A stretch of DNA of 37,745 nt from IMG/VR virus record IMGVR_UViG_2541047874_000005. One strand, 5' to 3'. Below the pieces are notes generated by a model, which was not told the DNA's origin, searched no databases, and worked only from the letters and a program-made list of their open reading frames with translations. The translations under genes and the position numbers were made by a program. Shown here piece after piece: positions 1 through 37,745 of this stretch. How positions within the stretch are numbered: the stretch's first letter is position 1; the number at the start of each line of letters is the position of its first letter. Source of the DNA: a virus. Taxonomy: Duplodnaviria; Heunggongvirae; Uroviricota; Caudoviricetes.

Positions 1-20
1 CACTGTTTATCCATACAGTT
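1..20 (+). promoter_or_regulatory. LexA (SOS) box 1 upstream of dinI-like gene
   Basis: CTGT-N8-ACAG at 3..18 (cactgtttatccatacagtt) matches the E. coli SOS box consensus. Confidence 0.65.
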
Positions 21-28
21 AAAAATAA

Positions 29-48
29 CACTGTATACAAACACAGTA
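29..48 (+). promoter_or_regulatory. LexA (SOS) box 2 upstream of dinI-like gene
   Basis: CTGT-N8-ACAG at 31..46 (ctgtatacaaacacag), 15 nt before the GAGGG RBS and ATG at 62. Confidence 0.65.
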
Positions 49-61
49 TAGAGGGACTTTT

Positions 62-310
62 ATGCGTATTGAAATCTGCATAGCCAAAGAAAAAATGACT
101 AAAATGCCAACCGGTGCTGTGGATGCGTTAAAGGAAGAATTAACCCGACGCATCAGTAAACGTTATGACGATGTAGAGGTGATCGTAAAAGCCACCAGCA
201 ACGATGGCCTTTCTGTTACGCGCACTGCCGATAAAGATTCAGCTAAAACTTTTGTTCAGGAAACTCTGAAAGATACCTGGGAGTCTGCTGACGAGTGGTT
301 TGTTCACTAA
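62..310 (+). CDS. dinI: DinI-family DNA-damage-inducible protein (RecA modulator)
   Basis: 82 aa; MRIE..IAK...LP.GA.DAL..EL.RRI and C-terminal [11 protein letters not shown] match my recollection of E. coli DinI over the full length; RBS GAGGG; preceded by two SOS boxes. Confidence 0.85.
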
Positions 311-717: not shown

Positions 718-1233
718 TTATTCCTCCAGTAAATCAACACGGCGGGTAAGTGCGCTGATACTCTCTGTCAGCGCATCCACCTGGCTGACAACAGCACGCA
801 GACACCACCAGAGAAGCTCCTCTTTCCGGAAGCGATAACGGCTTCCTGCTTCGGTTGCAGGGCGAACAAGAACCCTTTCCGCCTGTCGGGTAAGCACACG
901 GGTTGTCCCGCTCAACAGCTCCCCTTCATCCGAATAAATCGCTGGCTGAACCGGAATATCTTCATACTCTTCCGGTATATCTTCGTACTGTGCCTCCTCC
1001 GCTTCCCACGAATCCAGACAAAATGCGCTGTATTTCCGCCAGTCCAGACCGTGTTTCTCCATCACGGCTATCGCGGCCTGGACTGTCGGCCCGGCGTGCA
1101 GACGCGCGTCCTCGCCCTCCTCCTCAATTCTCTGTAACCAGCGCCACACGCCCGGAAGCCGTGCTATTTCTGCAAATGCCGCGTTTTCGGCTGCCGTCGC
1201 ATCGCGCGGTGTATCCTTTAACGTCGCATCCGA
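718..1233 (-). other. Putative peptidase-S74-like autoproteolytic chaperone domain of the tail fibre (last ~171 aa)
   Basis: SDATLK begins at residue 781 (Ser codon TCG at 1233..1231 on minus strand); pattern S-D-x-x-L-K then hydrophobic helix and terminal heptad-like [17 protein letters not shown]. Confidence 0.45.
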
Positions 1234-3573
1234 CACAACGGTCGGCGAGTTGCAGAGATACACGCTCCGGAACGCTTTGTTGGGCGCACCCAGGTCGCTG
1301 GTATTGTTAACCGATGGCCGGAATGCACCGTTAATATCTGTATCCATCTGCATGAATGCAGTGCCGTCACTACGGGCTGCAATTACATAAGCGTCAGCAG
1401 AATCGTCATAAATACCCAGATTCCCGACTGTTGATACCTGGAAAGCTCCCGCCTTCAGCGTGGTGCTGATGGTCATGCGCTTCTGGGTTTCGTCATCCGA
1501 TTTAATATTCACGCCCTGCAGGTATGCCACATTCCAGCGATTTGGCGATGACCCCAGATTCATTGCCTTGTCCTGGTCGGGATGAAATGACGGCGAGACC
1601 GGACTCAATAATACAGACCAGGTTTCACTGCCATCGGTGCAATAAAGCCTTGTGCGTCCCGCCGACTGAGTATCGTTCATTGAGTAAAGGTTAATCCCGC
1701 CACCGCTCAACAAATCCACGTCAGCGCGTATTTCCAGACAATCGTGCACGGCGTTCAGTCGGTGTTTCCACTGAACGTAGCGGCCTGTGTATTCTCCGGT
1801 TCGGAACGCATCCCCGAACAAACGAAAAACAGCAGCAGAAGTGTCTGTATCCGGAGCCTCCTTTCTGACCTCAAATAACGGGCGATGCGAGCGCAGATTC
1901 TGCTCATAGGCTGCCACCTGGAAGTCTTCATTGGGTGACAGGGCAATATTTACAGCATTGGGACTCAGAAAAAGGCTGGCATGGCTGTCAGGAAACGCCA
2001 CGCCGGAGTCCACCAGATAGCCTGTGCCGTCGTAAGCCTCCACGGAAACCACAGCTTTGCTGCGTTTTGTCGCCACGCCACACGTATAAGACTTCGTGGC
2101 ATCATATTTCGTTGCAGCCGCCGTTCCATATGCTGTAGGCGTCCAGTAAGATGGATTCACCGGGGAACGGCCAGAAAAATTTGTTGCACGTGCTGCAAAG
2201 TATGCCCCCTCAAAAGAAACCACATCGGCTGTCTGACACCAGAAATCCATATCGAGCAGATACAGTTTTCCGTTATGGAGAGCCAGCCCTTCGGCTTCCT
2301 GCAAAACGGGATACCCCAGCTCTGCATTCCCCAGCATTTTCTGGCGGCCATACCTGGCACGAACGCCATCCACATTGAACTGTCTGACAACTTCGCCCGT
2401 TGACAGGTTATATACAACAATGCGGTGAGTCAGAAATACGCCTGTATAACCGTAATAAGCAAACAGATAATGACCATCGCTGGCCATCCCCTGAAATGCC
2501 TGCGACACCATTGGCTGAGTGGACAGATAAATCCGGTGTTTAAACGTCAGAGAGGCGCGATCGAAAACATAAACTGTGCGGCGATCATCCCTGTTGTAAT
2601 GAAGATGAACTGCTTCATTACTTGACTGAACAATCAACAGGCTTCCGTCTGCCGACAATGCCACCGTTATAATTTCATCCCCGGTAAAAAAGTCAGAGGT
2701 GAAAATCTCCGTACGGGTGACATCTGTCAGACTGGTGTCAGCCCCATTCCAGTTGATGATATTCACACCCTTGCCGTCAGCGGTCGGGGTATACAGCATC
2801 ACGCGACCGTCTTCACATACAGCCCCGATACTCTGGTGACCAATATCAGCGAAAACGGGAGAAAACGAAATGACCGTCGGGTTTTCGTTTTCTCCGTCAG
2901 GGTTAAATGTCGTTTCAACAATCCTTACGCCACCCGATACAGGCTGATGCAGAAACATTCTGGTTCCCTGCGGCGTATCACAGATACAGAACCCCTGGCT
3001 CATATTATCCGCGCCGTCAAAAATACCGGCGTAGTCGATATCATGAATTACTTTATGCTGGAGGGCGTCGTAATCAATGATGTCGCGGCGCAGAGAAATA
3101 TCCGCCGATCCATCAAACTCAACACCGTCAATCCTGACTGGCGTCTTAAGCTTTGATGCGGTAGCTGCGTTACCGTCCAGTTCACCAGCAACACCACCAT
3201 TGAAACTCTGCCTGCCGCTCCACGTATTTTCTGTGCTTAATAGTGGGATCTTTTCACCGCTGCTTCCTGTCTCTCTTAAACCAAGATTTTCGAGAGCAGT
3301 TTTCACTGTGCCATCCAATTTGATGTCGCCAAACGGATTCTTGCGGCTTAACAGCAGCGAACGAAGCGCGGTAAGCAGCTGGTCATGCCGCCCCTTCTCC
3401 AGGCTGGCACCGGATGCTTCCACAACACTGCAAAGCTCTTCCTGCAACATGTCAAAGTAGTCATCATCCAGATCGGTGGCAGGCGTACCGGTCTGGGGGT
3501 TGCCACGGGTAAAACCGTTCTTACCCGCGCCGAACTTATCCTTCTGCGCGGTTTTCGTGTCTATACGATGCAT
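718..3573 (-). CDS. Tail fibre / receptor-binding protein with C-terminal S74-like intramolecular chaperone domain
   Basis: 951 aa; N-terminus [26 protein letters not shown]...[12 protein letters not shown] is the conserved phage tail-fibre N-terminal anchor; sits after the gp48-like gene as in Mu; C-terminus has SDATLK (Ser/Lys dyad spacing), [17 protein letters not shown] and a terminal coiled coil. Confidence 0.85.
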
Positions 3574-5210: not shown

Positions 5211-5625
5211 GCGTTATCGCACTCCACAGATCATCAAAAGAAATCATTATCGGTCCGTCACGACGCCAGAGGGTGATACTGTTACCCAGCTCATTAATCC
5301 CGGTGCGGCGGATATCCAGATCAATACGGGACACCACGCCGTCATCAATCATCCATTGCAGGCATTCGCGGATATACCCCCTTACCGTCTGCACCAACTG
5401 ATTGGTCAGTTTGCTGCGCTGAAGCAGCCACAGCCGGGAGCCGTAACGGTCATTCTGTACCGCAGGCCAGGTATCCCCCCACCATCCCATCGGGACGTCG
5501 GCATTGTCATCAGGCTCCGCCCGCCGCCAGGTAAAAAGGGAAATCACCACGGCGCGGGTCAGCGGATCCAGCGGTGCGCTGGCGCAGGTGCGTTTACCGT
5601 TCACCGTCAGCCACAGTTCCATCAT
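5197..5625 (-). CDS. Mu gp46-like baseplate protein
   Basis: 142 aa; position between V-like spike and J-like protein; overlapping start/stop with neighbours. Confidence 0.6.
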   Translation of the reverse strand: MMELWLTVNGKRTCASAPLDPLTRAVVISLFTWRRAEPDDNADVPMGWWGDTWPAVQNDRYGSRLWLLQRSKLTNQLVQTVRGYIRECLQWMIDDGVVSRIDLDIRRTGINELGNSITLWRRDGPIMISFDDLWSAITHGGQ

Positions 5626-7249: not shown

Positions 7250-8574
7250 TGCACTGGCACCTTCAGAGGGATCACCGGCACAAAGCCGGGATGCGTAATG
7301 GCATTACGCCGGATAATGTCCGCGTCACGCGCCGCGTTATCAAACCAGGTCGCCGCCAGCACCAGCGCGGGTAAAACCTCATCCGGCGTGCGCTGAATGA
7401 TCCGTGCAGACTGTTCAAGGCGCGTGTTGATATCCGCATTCAGATCTGCTTTCACCCGGCGCAGCGCCAGAAACAGCGCATCACTGGTTGTACGGGACAA
7501 CTCCTTATCAATTGCCGTATTCAGTGTGTCGCGAATGTCAGTCAGTTCTTCCCACGTTGGCAGATCAACCGTGTTTTTCACCGCCGGTGCATTGTTCAGT
7601 GCCGGATGCGTAACGGAAGGCCAGCCGGTGCTCTGCGCGGGTGTTGTTGACTGCCCCACTGCGGCATTCTGCATCACCGCGGAAGTTGTTGGCGCAGGCA
7701 ATCGGGTTACGGCATACGCCGCTTCGCTGATTGCGGTCGTACGAAGGGTGCTGGCAACCACGTTACGCTGCTGCGTCGCCGTAGCGGTGGTTTTACTGTC
7801 CGTTTTCCAGACGCCGCGCGGTTGCAGATCGCTGCCGAGGCTGACACCGGAAAGCGTTTTGATCATGGTGACCAGGTCGCTGGCGTTACCATAAAGGCGT
7901 TTCCCGGTACGCCACATTTTCTGCACCTGCTCAACGAAATTTTTGCCTGACGATGGCGGCGGCAGAAGTACCGAGATATCCCCCTGCAACAGCCTGGCGG
8001 CATCCGATACGGCAGAATCCACCACTTTCATCGCATCAGAAACATACCCCAGCATTGTGCTGGCATTACCAACGACGTCGTTCTGCACAAAATCCGCCAC
8101 GCTATCGATACTGAAACCGCTGAAGCTGTCACTGATGCAGTCATCCAGTGCAGAACAGGATGACATCAGCGTCTGCGCCGTCGCCGCACCTGATGTGGGG
8201 TAAGAGAGTTCTCCTGCTTCGACAAACTTCAGGTCAAAGCGGACAATACGCCCTTCACTTTTCGATGTGCTGACCCGAACTTCCCCGTCAACACAGACTT
8301 TCAGCTCACCGTATGTCGGATGGACAAGCGTGCCGGGACCGGGTTTATTCAGCGCGTCAATCAGGCGATCACGCTGGTCAAAGCAGTCATCTCCCACCAC
8401 ATAAGCTGTGATGGACGGGCGGAAAGTGACTTTTCCCAGGTCTTCGGTATAGGGCTTGTCGCGGTTCGGGTATTCGTGTGTTTCCACACGGCGACCAGTT
8501 CCCGCACTTTCTTCTTCAACCTTAAACGGTACGCCGCGAAATGACGCATCCTGAAGCCTGTCTTTCCACGTCAT
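7246..8574 (-). CDS. Mu gpN-like DNA circulation protein (tail/baseplate)
   Basis: 442 aa; N-terminus MTWKDRLQDASFRGVPFKVEEE...THEYPNRDKPYTEDLG resembles the Mu N family N-terminal domain; first gene after tape measure in Mu-type tails. Confidence 0.75.
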   Translation of the reverse strand: MTWKDRLQDASFRGVPFKVEEESAGTGRRVETHEYPNRDKPYTEDLGKVTFRPSITAYVVGDDCFDQRDRLIDALNKPGPGTLVHPTYGELKVCVDGEVRVSTSKSEGRIVRFDLKFVEAGELSYPTSGAATAQTLMSSCSALDDCISDSFSGFSIDSVADFVQNDVVGNASTMLGYVSDAMKVVDSAVSDAARLLQGDISVLLPPPSSGKNFVEQVQKMWRTGKRLYGNASDLVTMIKTLSGVSLGSDLQPRGVWKTDSKTTATATQQRNVVASTLRTTAISEAAYAVTRLPAPTTSAVMQNAAVGQSTTPAQSTGWPSVTHPALNNAPAVKNTVDLPTWEELTDIRDTLNTAIDKELSRTTSDALFLALRRVKADLNADINTRLEQSARIIQRTPDEVLPALVLAATWFDNAARDADIIRRNAITHPGFVPVIPLKVPVQ

Positions 8575-8585
8575 ATAAACTCCGG

Positions 8586-8642
8586 ATACAAAAAACCCGC
8601 CAAATCTGCTTTGTCAGTTATTTACATCGCAGAAGATGTGGC
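8586..8642 (-). terminator. Rho-independent terminator after the moron gene
   Basis: On minus strand: CCCGCCAcATCtTCTGC ... GCAGATtTGGCGGG imperfect hairpin followed by TTTTTT. Confidence 0.5.
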
Positions 8643-8664
8643 GGGAATTTAATATTTTTAATTA

Positions 8665-9159
8665 CTATCTGAGTTGAACATCAATGGAATAAATATCACC
8701 ACTCTTTATAAATTTAGAATCTGTCCTTTCATCAAAAGATTCAAATGACTGTACCTTTAAAAACTTTTTCATTTTATTTTCAAAAATACTTTCATTAACA
8801 CCAGTTAAATACTTGAATGCTCTACCAGCAAGGACCTCATTACTTAAATCCATTGTGTTTTTATTGTCTTTGAAAAACCAAACAATAACCTTTTGTGGGC
8901 ATGATGGATTATAAACAGATATATAAAACTGCGGCTCATATTTTTCATCAGCGTCATCACTAAGCATTTCTTCAGAAGATAATTCCCTTCTGAATTCATA
9001 TTGCCGCTTAGTTATTCCTTCATCCTTTATTATCTCTTGCTTAACTGGTGCAATACCTATAGAAGAGATTAATTCTGACTCATTAAAGCTGAACTTACAC
9101 TCTTCCGCAGCCAAGTTAAAAGATAAAAGTGCAGATATAAAAAAAACAAAGATACGCAT
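8665..9159 (-). CDS. AT-rich moron: predicted secreted/periplasmic protein of unknown function
   Basis: About 164 aa from the ATG at 9159 (ORF track extends to 9177); AGGGA RBS; N-terminal signal peptide MRIFVFFISALLSFNLAAEE; markedly AT-rich compared with flanking tail genes; own terminator; TATAAT about 30 nt upstream. Confidence 0.7.
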   Translation of the reverse strand: MRIFVFFISALLSFNLAAEECKFSFNESELISSIGIAPVKQEIIKDEGITKRQYEFRRELSSEEMLSDDADEKYEPQFYISVYNPSCPQKVIVWFFKDNKNTMDLSNEVLAGRAFKYLTGVNESIFENKMKKFLKVQSFESFDERTDSKFIKSGDIYSIDVQLR

Positions 9160-9258
9160 AATCATCCCTTCAATCATTTGTAAGGAATGATTATATTAAC
9201 TACTTAAAGCTGAAAACCCAAATTATGCCAGACAAAAACACATTAATCATTTTGTGCA

Positions 9259-21170: not shown

Positions 21171-21521
21171 TCACTTTAACCGTTCACGGGCCGTCTTCGC
21201 CTTATGGCACGGCCAGCACAGACTCTGCAGATTACTGTCAGCATCAGTGCCGCCATGCGCTTTAGGGATGATGTGGTCAACAGTTTTCGCCTCACGCACC
21301 ACACCAGCACGCAGACATAACTGACACAGGCCTTTGTCACGCTTCAGGACACGCGCGCGGATACTGTCCCACTTCGAACCGTAGCCGCGCTGATGACGGG
21401 ATTGTCCAGGTTTGTATTGCTTCCAGCCTTCGCTTTTGTGGCTTTCGCAATAGCCTGACGGGTCAGTGGTGGTATGGCGGCAGCCGCGAACACGGCAGGC
21501 TTTTGGGGTTCGTGGGGGCAT
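21171..21521 (-). CDS. HNH endonuclease (packaging-associated)
   Basis: 116 aa; CxxC ... DHIIP ... H ... CWPCH (HNH/zinc motif); immediately upstream of terminase genes. Confidence 0.85.
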   Translation of the reverse strand: MPPRTPKACRVRGCRHTTTDPSGYCESHKSEGWKQYKPGQSRHQRGYGSKWDSIRARVLKRDKGLCQLCLRAGVVREAKTVDHIIPKAHGGTDADSNLQSLCWPCHKAKTARERLK

Positions 21522-22299: not shown

Positions 22300-22576
22300 C
22301 CGCAACAGCCACTTTGATATCTTCCTGGGTTCTCTGTGACTCCAGTGCGATCTGCTGTTTTGCATGTTGATTCGCCTCCTGAATGATGTTCGTTATTGCC
22401 ATAGTACGCAGAACATTCGCGGTGATAGTCTCAGTAGAATCAGCTCGCTGTTCCGCAGCATCAGCACGCTTCTGCTCCTCCAGAAACTTTCCATGATAGT
22501 GATTCGCTGACCAGACAAGACCACCAGCGACACAAGCAATAAACGTTAAAATGAGCGCCCAATAACTCATCTTCAT
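22184..22576 (-). CDS. Rz: i-spanin (Rz-like)
   Basis: 130 aa; N-terminal TM helix then charged helical periplasmic domain; directly downstream of the endolysin. Confidence 0.7.
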   Translation of the reverse strand: MKMSYWALILTFIACVAGGLVWSANHYHGKFLEEQKRADAAEQRADSTETITANVLRTMAITNIIQEANQHAKQQIALESQRTQEDIKVAVADDDCASRPVPAAAADRLRKYANSLRPGSGSSVTSQPDG

Positions 22577-23187
22577 ACCAGCAGCGCCGCCCGCGCCTTG
22601 TTGTATCGGACCTTACGATCCTCAATACCGTTCAAACCGCCGTTAATGATGCGCGTAACACGGTTAATATCGGCACCGTAGATCATGCAACCTTTAGAGG
22701 TGTAGAACCATGCAGCTGAGCGCGCAGCCTGTAGTTCCTGTTCCAGTTGTTCAGGTGAAGTCACCAGATCTAACTTCAGCGCCGCGCCACAGATGCGATA
22801 ATTATGGAGGCCAGTGATTTGAATTAATCCTCTACCACGATATTTCCAGCCATCACCTGGTGCTTTGTTACCCAGTCGGTTGCTATACACCAGATTGGCA
22901 ATAGCATCCTGACGAGCTGCATGTCCGGATGTTCTGCCAAGGGCATCAGCCTGCTGCTGTGTGATCCTCTTTCCGAACGTCGCCACCAGCGCAGATGGTG
23001 TGTAGTTAAAATTTTCAACTACGGCGCTAAACCCCATCGACTCATGGCCTACCTGAGCGATAAACATTGCCTGATCCGCTGGTGCTGTAATGCCGAATTC
23101 CTTCATCGCCGCATCAATGTGCGGAAACCAGCGCGCAGCCAGCCCGGCGCTAATACCAGCCGCCTTTTGAAATAATTGTTGGTTCAT
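22573..23187 (-). CDS. Endolysin, glycoside hydrolase family 19 (chitinase-like)
   Basis: 204 aa; GHESMGF and YRGRGLIQITGLHNY match GH19 catalytic motifs. Confidence 0.85.
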   Translation of the reverse strand: MNQQLFQKAAGISAGLAARWFPHIDAAMKEFGITAPADQAMFIAQVGHESMGFSAVVENFNYTPSALVATFGKRITQQQADALGRTSGHAARQDAIANLVYSNRLGNKAPGDGWKYRGRGLIQITGLHNYRICGAALKLDLVTSPEQLEQELQAARSAAWFYTSKGCMIYGADINRVTRIINGGLNGIEDRKVRYNKARAALLV

Positions 23188-23468
23188 TAGTGCCTCAGAT
23201 GATCAACCAGACGTGCAACGTTGCCTCTGACGGCCACCAGCACGGAAAGAAAAATAGTGTTCGCCACGATAATGGGCCATGAGGAATGGGGATAAATCCC
23301 ACAGAGATAGGCCAACGGAACAGCACTGTATGTAACAGTAATCAGCCAGGCTAAACGTGAAACCCAAGGACGATGCCGCGAATCACCACGACGATAAAAC
23401 ATCAGAGTAATAACAACACAAGCACATAACAGCGCATTTATAGTTGCTGTCGGGTCATTTAGCTCCAC
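23187..23468 (-). CDS. Holin-like/antiholin-like membrane protein
   Basis: 93 aa, 2-3 TM helices, charged C-terminus; immediately upstream of endolysin. Confidence 0.55.
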   Translation of the reverse strand: MELNDPTATINALLCACVVITLMFYRRGDSRHRPWVSRLAWLITVTYSAVPLAYLCGIYPHSSWPIIVANTIFLSVLVAVRGNVARLVDHLRH

Positions 23469-23841
23469 CTGAACCTCCCCGGCGCGTTATGAGCGCCACC
23501 AGCGAGCCGATATCCTGATTATTCAGGAACGTCAGGATTTTAACGGCTAAAGCAGAGACGATTACGGCACCAATAGCATCCAGAGGTTTATCACTGTATC
23601 CGGTCAAGTTCGCCAGCTTGGAGCCAACCAACCCAGAGCAAAGAATCCCGGCAATATATGACACGATAAAATATGCCAGTCGGCGCGATGCACTCAGATC
23701 TGCTGCTGTTGCTATGTAGAATACAGCCCCTGCAAATGCGCCAAATACAACGCCGTAATCAGTTCCGGTCAGCAGTCCATAAACACTGGCACCCGTCAGG
23801 GCACCACCAGCCAGCCCAGTACCGGAAATCGGATCGGACAT
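23455..23841 (-). CDS. Putative holin
   Basis: 128 aa, Gly/Ala-rich TM helices; first gene of the lysis cassette. Confidence 0.55.
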   Translation of the reverse strand: MSDPISGTGLAGGALTGASVYGLLTGTDYGVVFGAFAGAVFYIATAADLSASRRLAYFIVSYIAGILCSGLVGSKLANLTGYSDKPLDAIGAVIVSALAVKILTFLNNQDIGSLVALITRRGGSGGAK

Positions 23842-36394: not shown

Positions 36395-36667
36395 ATGAAC
36401 ACCTTGTTTTTACTGATGGCTGAATTCAATACCCCAAACATTGAACTCTCAGCAGTTAGTCAAAAATACTTTGGTATGAGTCCAGCCACAGCAGAAGCAA
36501 AAGCAAACGCTTGTAAGTTGCCTGTACCTACATATCGCATCGGTACATCACAAAAAGCAAAACGCTGCATCAACATTCAGGATCTTGCGGAATATATTGA
36601 CAAAAGACGGGAAGAAGGGCGAGCTGAGTGGGAAAAAGTCAGAACGGAAAAACAAAAATATAACTAA
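36395..36667 (+). CDS. Excisionase-like / PrtN-family DNA-binding protein
   Basis: About 90 aa from ATG at 36395 (GGAG RBS); LPVPTYRIG...INIQDLAEYIDKRREE matches PrtN/Xis-like winged-helix proteins; last gene of the early-left operon. Confidence 0.55.
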   Translation: MNTLFLLMAEFNTPNIELSAVSQKYFGMSPATAEAKANACKLPVPTYRIGTSQKAKRCINIQDLAEYIDKRREEGRAEWEKVRTEKQKYN

Positions 36668-36683
36668 ACTAAAACTATGGATA

Positions 36684-36709
36684 ACCCGTATATGTACGGG
36701 TTATTTTTC
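36684..36709 (+). terminator. Terminator after the xis-like gene (overlaps the convergent gene's stop)
   Basis: ACCCGTA-tatg-TACGGGT hairpin followed by TATTTTT. Confidence 0.55.
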
Positions 36710-37249
36710 TTTATCACTATCTTTTCTTGATTTGAACAATCCACTAACAACGAAACCAACCAAACCAACAATACTAATTGTACTTGTACCTAGTAATGCA
36801 ACGATCGCTTCAACTGGAGGCTTTCCTTCATGTGCAATAAGAAACGATGTAAACATTGCGACAACGAATAAGCACCAACACGACATAAACCAAACCGTGA
36901 ATGAGGCCATTTTTGTCCGAAGCTCATTGTCTATTTCTTTACCAGTTGCGTCAGCTATCTTATCCCGTACTTGTGATTTGAGCATATCAAGCTGAGCTTG
37001 AAGACTGTCCATTCTGTTCTGCTGCATAAACTCATGCAATGCACCAGTATTAGAACCAAACTCTTCTGCCTCCAGAATAGCTTTATTTTCTGAAGAAGAA
37101 TCATCGTCGCTCTCATGATTAGACGGCTCAAATGCAGATTTAAAAATCTGTTCTTGACTGTCAGTAGAGTTTAAGGATGCTTCAGAGCGACCATTTTCAA
37201 CACCTGCGGCCGCTCCGATAAGTTTATAGATATCTGAATTGTGAGACAT
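36701..37249 (-). CDS. Small membrane protein, candidate toxin/effector partner of the Panacea protein
   Basis: 182 aa; acidic Ser-rich N-terminal region, helical middle, two C-terminal TM helices; AT-rich; 22 nt after the Panacea gene. Confidence 0.6.
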   Translation of the reverse strand: MSHNSDIYKLIGAAAGVENGRSEASLNSTDSQEQIFKSAFEPSNHESDDDSSSENKAILEAEEFGSNTGALHEFMQQNRMDSLQAQLDMLKSQVRDKIADATGKEIDNELRTKMASFTVWFMSCWCLFVVAMFTSFLIAHEGKPPVEAIVALLGTSTISIVGLVGFVVSGLFKSRKDSDKEK

Positions 37250-37271
37250 GTCATCCCTGAATATTACTTTT

Positions 37272-37745
37272 TCAGAGGCCCTGACATTGCTGTCGGTTAT
37301 TCAATAAATCATGATAATAAGCCTTGATCGCATCATTTGAGATGATTGACGAGCCAATACCATTATAAGCTTGTGACCAAGGCGTACCAGGCATATGAGT
37401 TAGAGTTGATAACTCAATTCCATTTTTCGAGCCGTAAAATTTATAAACAGCCCCTATAATGCTCTCTGCTTGTGGATCCATAGTAACAATGCCACCAAAA
37501 GGAGCTACTGCTACATTCGTAACAGGTTTATTCCCATAATCTTTGAAAGCATCGTACATTCCAGGAATAACTGGACCGTACTTCCACGCGGAGACACATT
37601 CATTGAGCAAAGGCTTACCTGTTAATGCTAAATAGTAACCATGTGCAATATAAGTAAGCTTCTGCAGTTGCATGTGGGTCAGAGGATTATGATGTTGGTT
37701 TCCCAACGTTATGAATTTATTGGCTATTTGTACCGGGCTGTACAT
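37272..37745 (-). CDS. Panacea-domain (DUF4065) protein, putative PanA-type antitoxin
   Basis: 157 aa; PLTHMQLQKLTYIAHGYYLALTGKPLL...AWKYGPVIPGMYDAFKDYG matches my recollection of the Panacea hallmark; ATG coincides with the window edge, so the true start and upstream region are unverified. Confidence 0.7.
   Translation of the reverse strand: MYSPVQIANKFITLGNQHHNPLTHMQLQKLTYIAHGYYLALTGKPLLNECVSAWKYGPVIPGMYDAFKDYGNKPVTNVAVAPFGGIVTMDPQAESIIGAVYKFYGSKNGIELSTLTHMPGTPWSQAYNGIGSSIISNDAIKAYYHDLLNNRQQCQGL

Follow-up and report, generated by a model that had tools for sequence, protein, structure and literature searches.

What is the AT-rich gene pair that closes the right-hand end of this phage DNA, and has it been described before? 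The stretch analyzed here in its full length of 37,745 nt (IMG/VR record IMGVR_UViG_2541047874_000005; hereafter, the window) is a mosaic prophage. The original prediction, made from the letters alone, placed two co-oriented minus-strand genes at this end, 22 nt apart and convergent on the early-left operon, and read them as acquired cargo: a Panacea-domain antitoxin followed by a membrane-protein toxin, that is, a PanAT-like pair. This outline stands, and it matches a published pair from E. coli STEC O31. The prediction went astray in supposing that the toxin-like partner had no recognizable family and that the pair might be uncharacterized, since a pair of toxin cluster T3 that has already been tested has the same antitoxin and a toxin of 96.2% identity. 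The two genes are almost certainly the E. coli PanAT type II toxin–antitoxin module. For panAT the name, a validated toxin–antitoxin phenotype, and the toxic mechanism were therefore already known; what we add concerns the phages that carry the pair, the slot in which it sits, and the signals that may control it.

The two open reading frames were recovered where they had been predicted, and their coordinates are collected in Table 1 together with those of the neighboring features. Both are convergent with the plus-strand early-left genes, which end in an excisionase-like gene.

Table 1. Coordinates of panAT, its neighbors, and the lysis genes of the prophage, in window positions
Feature	Coordinates	Strand	Description
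panA	37272..37745	-	157-aa ORF; Panacea-domain antitoxin without an extra N-terminal domain
panA–panT spacer	37250..37271	-	22 nt, read directly; panT ribosome-binding site (RBS) AGGGA, 4 nt 5' of ATG
panT	36701..37249	-	182-aa ORF; membrane toxin
Bidirectional intrinsic-terminator hairpin	36681..36704	both	ATAACCCGTA-loop-TACGGGTTAT; from a terminator scan
PrtN-family/excisionase-like gene	36395..36667	+	PF11112, E=3.9e-23; PHROG 1300 "excisionase," E=6.2e-40; RefSeq CDS coordinates
Phage_holin_8 gene	23455..23841		Lysis cassette
Muramidase-like gene	22573..23187		Lysis cassette

The compositional contrast on which the prediction leaned is real: the GC fraction of panAT is 0.397 (39.7%) against 0.520 (52.0%) in the remaining 36.7 kb of the window, and only 1.4% of equal-sized segments elsewhere in the stretch are as AT-rich. 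At the 3' side, the stem of the terminator hairpin extends over the stop codon of panT (36701..36703). The hairpin, with an RNA fold of -12.7 kcal/mol (z=-3.08), parts panT from the convergent excisionase-like gene, so that the two belong to separate transcription units. A 136-aa plus-strand ORF antisense to panT (36585..36995) was set aside as a shadow ORF because RefSeq has no annotation there and because it shares sequence with both the terminator and the coding region of panT.

At the 5' side, the ATG formed by the final triplet of the window is the true start of panA: the 157-aa CDS in RefSeq is the same, and an AGGAGG RBS lies 6 nt upstream of the start in the DNA beyond the window, preceded by a predicted consensus promoter. 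The start anticipated for the Panacea gene is thus in place, with a candidate promoter 5' of it. The further possibility that the pair belongs to a larger operon extending past the window can be dismissed; upstream there is only ~300 nt of promoter and leader, and then the dusA remnant at attR. The pair is a self-contained two-gene operon with the arrangement expected of PanAT genes, namely a 22-nt gap, its own promoter 5', its own terminator 3', and attR/dusA beyond.

The Panacea call on the upstream gene was borne out by the HMM search. PanA matches Pfam PF13274 (SocA_Panacea) with E=5.9e-18 and 66.3 bits against a cutoff of 25.7, and the match spans residues 27-123 of the protein and positions 1-112 of the 113 in the profile; the antitoxin therefore carries the Panacea/DUF4065 domain by which PanAT pairs are recognized. 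It also matches PHROG 1281 (E=6.6e-49). The protein is RefSeq WP_000287252.1, identical throughout, as the DNA is 100% identical to that of E. coli EFF60, which carries this CDS.

This accession leads directly to the literature. Kurata et al. (2022, PNAS 119:e2102212119; PMC8832971) described nine experimentally validated PanAT pairs, and their Table 1 lists PanA Esc. col. WP_000287252.1 with PanT Esc. col. WP_000019185.1, from E. coli STEC O31, as a validated toxin–antitoxin pair whose mode of action is given as "Membrane." Dataset S1 of the same article records this pair with the order A|T, a gap of 22, toxin cluster T3, and the LabReport entry "TA." Since the window antitoxin is identical to WP_000287252.1, it is the very protein that was tested.

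The toxin requires a little more care. The window PanT is RefSeq WP_000019187.1, a CDS in E. coli EFF60, and is not the tested allele; by searching with the allele of phage 1720a-02, we located the tested toxin, WP_000019185.1, in strain STEC1588, and ten other RefSeq loci proved to hold panT alleles other than this one. The two proteins are 96.2% identical and differ at 7 of 182 residues (I35A, K37E, S47R, V130A, A131G, T134V, and S178G). The variable N-terminus accounts for three of these substitutions, the less conserved half of the first transmembrane helix (TM1) for three more, and the C-tail for the last; in family alignments of 26 and 41 sequences, all seven positions are variable and none is invariant or nearly so. 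With its acidic N-terminus, its two hydrophobic segments, and this degree of identity to a T3 member, the window toxin falls in cluster T3.

Judged from sequence, every PanAT hallmark that we examined is present in the window pair, and the functional hallmarks are those of published experiments in which the antitoxin was identical and the toxin 96% identical. Database annotation agrees: phage PhiR47_1 (GenBank PV340566.1) and the E. coli EFF60 chromosome match the 1.4-kb panAT region with 100% identity, and the GenBank record of PhiR47_1 already labels the two genes "PanA antitoxin" and "PanT toxin." In our search for literature on this phage, the sole article naming it uses the phage for testing and says nothing of PanAT.

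What, then, does PanT look like? The residue counts and hydropathy agree with the acidic, Ser-rich N-terminus and two C-terminal transmembrane helices that were originally proposed for the 182-aa partner. Residues 1-75 include 15 D/E, only 4 K/R, and 17% Ser, and the Kyte-Doolittle profile places hydrophobic segments at ~114-140 (TM1) and ~145-172 (TM2). The protein matches PHROG 13343 over its full length (E=1.8e-113); against Pfam, no family exceeded the cutoff and only sub-threshold noise was returned (DUF2207_C, DUF2975).

Two successive family alignments, of 26 and 41 sequences that share 31-94% identity with the window protein, divide PanT into a variable N-terminus (1-~100), a juxtamembrane motif (G103..IDNxLR111), TM1, a short loop, TM2, and a basic C-tail. 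The conserved core consists of G103, IDNxLR (106-111), FM..WC.FV of TM1, and the TM2 motif ALLGTSTISIVGLVGFVVSGLFK, which is invariant or almost so across the 41 homologues. An AlphaFold2 model built on the 41-sequence alignment has a mean pLDDT of 59.7 and a pTM of 0.28 and was used for secondary structure only; it gives a helix at 68-139 that runs into TM1, a six-residue loop, and a second helix at 146-178, with residues 16-54 disordered and pLDDT values of 69-85 over residues 111-170. By analogy with the Bartonella toxin discussed below, we propose that PanT may be an N-in/C-in helical hairpin whose residues 1-113 would be cytoplasmic and held by PanA, and that its Gly/Ser/Thr-rich TM2 could serve as an oligomerization or pore-lining element.

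The published experiments indicate what such a protein can do. When E. coli PanT is expressed alone, growth stops, and metabolic labeling reveals that transcription, translation, and replication are shut down together (PMC8832971). The toxin depolarizes the inner membrane (DiSC3(5)) and admits SYTOX Green, which the authors read as the formation of large pores, and co-expression of PanA restores growth to PanT-expressing cells (PMC8832971). The pull-downs of PanA with PanT in the same article cover five other PanAT pairs, the E. coli pair not being among them (PMC8832971). For the Bartonella pair, an AlphaFold model has the Panacea domain contacting the unstructured N-terminus and the pre-TM helix of PanT, and the mutants Y56A and H120E support it (Ernits et al.).

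Put together for the window pair, the window PanT would be inserted in the inner membrane by its pair of C-terminal helices; left un-neutralized it should, as the 96%-identical allele does, depolarize the membrane and make it permeable to SYTOX Green, and macromolecular synthesis would be switched off. PanA, which is cytoplasmic and little more than a Panacea domain, would neutralize the toxin as the identical protein does in experiment, and we infer that it probably does so by direct binding to the cytoplasmic N-terminal or juxtamembrane part of PanT.

A different route to neutralization is suggested by the name of the Pfam family itself. In Caulobacter, SocA acts as an adaptor that brings a replication-clamp toxin to ClpXP. 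PanA, as a member of the same family (SocA_Panacea), could be supposed to act likewise and hand PanT over to ClpXP for proteolysis instead of binding it directly. We find this very improbable: neutralization assays in strains without ClpXP and Lon still work, and neither protease is needed by PanA (PMC8832971), from which it follows that PanA is not a SocA-like proteolytic adaptor; moreover PanT, unlike SocB, is a membrane protein.

It is also worthwhile to look at distant relatives, in which the pairing of the two genes was checked independently of Kurata et al. Three such PanT proteins were inspected, and each is encoded 21-41 nt downstream of a gene for a 156-157-aa Panacea protein. The first, from Enterobacter, is 66% identical to the window toxin. 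The second, from Providencia (48%), lies between antiterminator Q and holin, beside genes for a type I methylase and its specificity subunit. The third (42%) belongs to a P2-like prophage, where gpA/DinI lies on one side of it and the portal gene on the other, with the gene for a 586-aa reverse transcriptase as its neighbor; this site is the P2 hotspot described in PMC9122126. The PanA partners of these toxins co-diverge with them, at 75%, 59%, and 45% identity.

Where does the pair reside in the prophage? The original prediction called it acquired cargo near the attachment end of the prophage, and this is where it is. In E. coli chromosomes, panAT lies ~300 nt from a 105-nt 5' remnant of dusA that marks attR, and the integrase is at the opposite prophage end. 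Comparison with related phages defines a cargo slot that runs from the excisionase-like gene to attR (dusA). Homology to sibling phages devoid of PanAT stops just past the stop codon of the excisionase-like gene, and in these phages only query positions 1-290 of 303 match, which marks the inner border of the slot. In PhiR40_1, the same slot holds a pair annotated as YafO toxin and YafM antitoxin, and homology resumes at GGGAGCCTATTGGGAACCT; in mEp460, it holds two other small genes. Accordingly, panAT forms an AT-rich cassette of ~1.3 kb that brings its own promoter and terminator and occupies a variable slot of a prophage with lambdoid regulation. The resemblance of the window to PhiR47_1 is itself confined to the early and regulatory region.

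The distribution of the cassette was surveyed in three collections. Three isolated phages carry panAT, phiSTEC1575-Stx2k among them, and for two the host was a Shiga-toxin-producing E. coli (STEC); a tblastn search with PanT against 50,697 phage records returned the same three records as the DNA search. In a set of 5426 complete E. coli genomes, the toxin gene was found in 79, each time once and on the chromosome, and the neighboring excisionase-like gene in 741. No match to PanT was obtained by tblastn against 72,556 plasmids.

How is the cassette controlled? Its control region lies beyond the right end of the window and was read from the identical locus of E. coli EFF60 (L004; window coordinate = L004 coordinate + 32367), where the leader occupies positions 1680981-1681170 of the chromosome NZ_CP086678.1. 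A sigma-70 promoter, TTGACA-16-TATAAT, agrees with the consensus at 12 of 12 positions and is placed ~160 nt 5' of the panA ATG. Between this promoter and the AGGAGG are three CTG-N10-CAG boxes (L004 5502-5517, 5479-5494, and 5398-5413), a pattern quoted as the LexA box consensus in PMC2994835 and expected only ~0.04 times in this 185-nt leader; these are predicted sites. Scored with a position weight matrix (PWM) that was put together by hand from 19 E. coli LexA sites, the three reach 20.3, 19.0, and 17.4 bits, inside the 12.7-26.8 range of the training sites. The runner-up in the 9.4-kb locus scores 8.6 bits, and sites of at least 17 bits are expected 0.018 times per shuffled 9.4-kb locus. 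A repeated "ACAGTG" and an ACAG-N8-CTGT inverted repeat were considered as a separate operator and rejected, as the PWM scan shows that they belong to the second and third LexA-like boxes, of which they form the arms.

Conservation should be read with some caution. The three predicted boxes are kept in six of six E. coli and phage loci, which is weak evidence because those loci are ~96% identical. More telling is the diverged Enterobacter cassette, in which both promoter elements (-35 and -10), one strong box (TACTGTATGTATGAACAGTG; 21.3 bits), and the RBS are retained while the DNA in between has drifted. The PWM scan found no LexA box beside panA in the P2-like and Providencia cassettes, and SOS control is therefore not family-wide. 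As for the literature, Kurata et al. used heterologous promoters and LexA and SOS go unmentioned in their article (PMC8832971), and our search for a link between LexA and Panacea found nothing.

From a consensus promoter followed by three predicted LexA boxes, we predict that the cassette is SOS-inducible. In a quiet lysogen, panAT would probably be repressed, and it would be released in the SOS response, be it during prophage induction or on DNA damage. The strong form of this proposal, that E. coli panAT is a LexA-repressed, SOS-induced operon whose pore-former and antidote would be made in quantity only when DNA is damaged or the prophage is induced, is put forward tentatively, and we regard it as possible rather than probable.

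What such a module does for phage or host can be approached only by weighing several readings against one another. A function that benefits the lysogen, for example, defense by abortive infection, would be the most likely and is the one we favor, with prophage stabilization as the alternative. That panAT is primarily an abortive-infection or anti-phage defense of the lysogen is nevertheless a doubtful proposition in its specific form, in which an incoming phage would be sensed through the Panacea domain, or through the loss of a labile PanA, and the freed PanT would permeabilize the membrane before the phage cycle is complete. Relatives of the pair do occur in prophage defense or moron hotspots, both in the order gpA/DinI-[PanA-PanT]-reverse transcriptase-portal of the P2-like hotspot (PMC9122126) and in the lambdoid order Q-[PanA-PanT]-type I methylase/specificity-holin, and this location is circumstantial support for a defense-type role. 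Ernits et al. favor the view that Panacea senses activating cues, and they tie toxin–antitoxin systems to defense; RmrTA of phage Kita, a different membrane-depolarizing toxin–antitoxin system, defends against phages. However, a scan with PADLOC-DB 2.0.0 gave no match for PanT and a single spurious match of PanA to a type I restriction enzyme (E=0.02), our literature search found no phage-challenge result for the E. coli pair, and control by LexA, as predicted here, would be out of the ordinary in a constitutive sentinel. The alternative holds that panAT is an addiction or stabilization module, in which prophage loss or abortive excision is punished by post-segregational killing as PanA would decay faster than its toxin. 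Type II systems on mobile elements are classically assigned this role (PMC8832971); the cassette is directly beside the attachment site, and the slot of a sibling phage holds another toxin–antitoxin pair. We nonetheless consider addiction unlikely, given that ClpXP and Lon are dispensable for neutralization (PMC8832971), that an integrated single-copy prophage is seldom lost by segregation, and that the absence of the toxin from all 72,556 plasmids would be odd for an addiction module.

The predicted LexA boxes invite one more reading, since they would turn PanT on exactly at induction: the toxin could be an SOS-induced auxiliary lysis or holin-like protein, and PanA an antiholin-like brake. 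Two transmembrane helices, a charged C-tail, and pore formation are indeed holin-like. Even so, PanT has no holin match in Pfam or PHROG and its gene lies outside the lysis cassette, while the prophage owns a cassette of its own for this purpose, with a Phage_holin_8 gene and a muramidase-like gene; panAT is carried by only a minority of related prophages, and its family is found in non-lysis contexts across many phyla. A role as lysis helper is thus quite improbable. The pair is not a SocAB-type adaptor system, a lysis-cassette holin, or a catalogued defense system, and the reading to be preferred continues to be a function in favor of the lysogen.

For the wider community, two points go beyond the original work. 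A validated toxin–antitoxin pair is carried by inducible lambdoid phages, Stx2-converting ones included, in a slot where such pairs are exchanged. In addition, the native control region predicts SOS induction and, if this is confirmed, would give a Panacea system the concrete physiological trigger that the field calls unknown. It would also offer a simple handle with which to distinguish defense, stabilization, and induction-coupled killing. In that case, the location of the cassette in swappable toxin–antitoxin or defense slots of several prophage types would hint at abortive infection or competitor exclusion coupled to induction or to the SOS response.

Finally, the pair should be set beside the systems that it most resembles. 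It is like the STEC O31 pair in its A-then-T order, 22-nt gap, flanking excisionase-like gene, and dusA-side leader, but that pair was scored "NotPhage" with PHASTER by Kurata et al., whereas the window pair is plainly prophage or phage cargo. The Bartonella choladocola (apis) pair PanT(T12/D11):PanA is also a membrane-depolarizing pore-former with a charged N-terminus, a C-terminal transmembrane region, and a bare Panacea antidote; its toxin is in another sequence cluster, however, and homology to T3 is only suspected by the authors (PMC8832971). The antitoxin of Caulobacter SocAB shares the Panacea/SocA Pfam domain with PanA, but PanT targets the membrane and PanA works without ClpXP or Lon. 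In TisB/IstR-1, a LexA-controlled small inner-membrane toxin of 29 aa depolarizes the membrane, and this type I system is controlled by an antisense RNA. As in this and other LexA-controlled membrane toxins, panAT combines a membrane-depolarizing toxin with LexA boxes (predicted for panAT); unlike TisB, PanT is 182 aa long and is held by a protein antitoxin. If the prediction is true, an SOS-induced panAT would be the protein-antitoxin counterpart of TisB or of colicin-type SOS modules.

In Dataset S1 of PMC8832971, the E. coli STEC O31 row scores the validated PanAT locus as “NotPhage” in the PHASTER column. This score is contradicted, as the locus is in fact lambdoid phage cargo: it sits within the inducible lambdoid phages PhiR47_1, phiSTEC1575-Stx2k, and 1720a-02, and it adjoins attR in dusA. 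In the sibling phages PhiR40_1 and mEp460, the equivalent slot, bounded by the excisionase-like gene on one side and attP on the other, carries non-PanAT cargo, and it appears to be a place where TA-type cassettes are swapped.

Features of the window and of the related loci
Feature	Coordinates	Strand	Details
PanA C-terminal motif C-x-G-L-stop	window 37272-37290		window PanA and homologues in L022, L024, L026
Sigma-70 promoter and three predicted LexA boxes, panA leader	L004 (E. coli EFF60) 5396-5563 = window-equivalent 37763-37930		past the window's right end
LexA-like box CACTGTTTATCCATACAGTT	window 1-20		~21 bits
LexA-like box CACTGTATACAAACACAGTA	window 29-48		~21 bits
82-aa ORF	window 62-310	+	directly downstream of the two strong LexA-like boxes
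Tail-fibre-like protein, 951 aa	window 718-3573	-	C-terminal Peptidase_S74, E=1.9e-9
170-aa ORF	window 8665-9177	-	tail module, between 610-aa ORF (probable tape measure) and 442-aa ORF
HNH endonuclease, 116 aa	window 21171-21521	-	PF01844, E=2.3e-16; just upstream of terminase genes
Alternative slot cargo, PhiR40_1 (PV340560.1)	L021 1927-2917		pair annotated YafO toxin/YafM antitoxin
Alternative slot cargo, mEp460	L028 2857-3760		two small hypothetical genes, gp23 and gp24
PanA-PanT homologues beside 586-aa reverse-transcriptase gene	L024 3489-6724		P2-like gpA-portal hotspot
PanA-PanT homologues next to genes for a type I methylase and specificity subunit	L026 3502-7692		Providencia lambdoid prophage, antiterminator Q-holin interval

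The window's first base lines up with the one that follows the integrase CDS as annotated in PhiR47_1, and its last (37745) falls exactly on the panA ATG, so the integrase, the two att sites, and the control region of panA lie outside it. In the identical E. coli EFF60 locus, the panA leader carries a perfect sigma-70 consensus (TTGACA-16-TATAAT) and, downstream of it, the three predicted LexA boxes of the form CTG-N10-CAG, which score 17.4-20.3 bits with a matrix built from E. coli LexA sites. This arrangement, of which the original paper (PMC8832971) makes no mention, suggests that the validated pair is SOS-inducible. At the left end, the PhiR47_1 counterpart of the 82-aa ORF bears the annotation “DNA damage-inducible protein,” and the mEp460 gene at the matching position is annotated DinI. 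Taken together, these features place accessory genes under predicted SOS control at each extremity of the prophage.

The C-x-G-L end terminates all four of the PanA homologues compared (CQGL, CQGL, CNGL, and CKGL), at identities down to 45%, and it falls beyond the Pfam Panacea match. Among the diverged loci, no R subunit gene was seen with the methylase and specificity genes of the Providencia prophage.

The early region of the window is 94-99% identical to PhiR47_1, whereas the structural/lysis half (716-24235) has no similarity to it; the prophage is thus mosaic, with a lambdoid early region joined to a late region of another kind. ORF sizes suggest that this late module encodes a contractile tail and an HK97-type head. 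The 170-aa ORF, which has no Pfam match and lies in a pocket of sharply low GC (0.34 over 8501-9000), may be a second moron. The Peptidase_S74 of the tail-fibre-like protein is an intramolecular chaperone domain, and the HNH gene and the terminase genes share the arrangement of HK97-like packaging modules.
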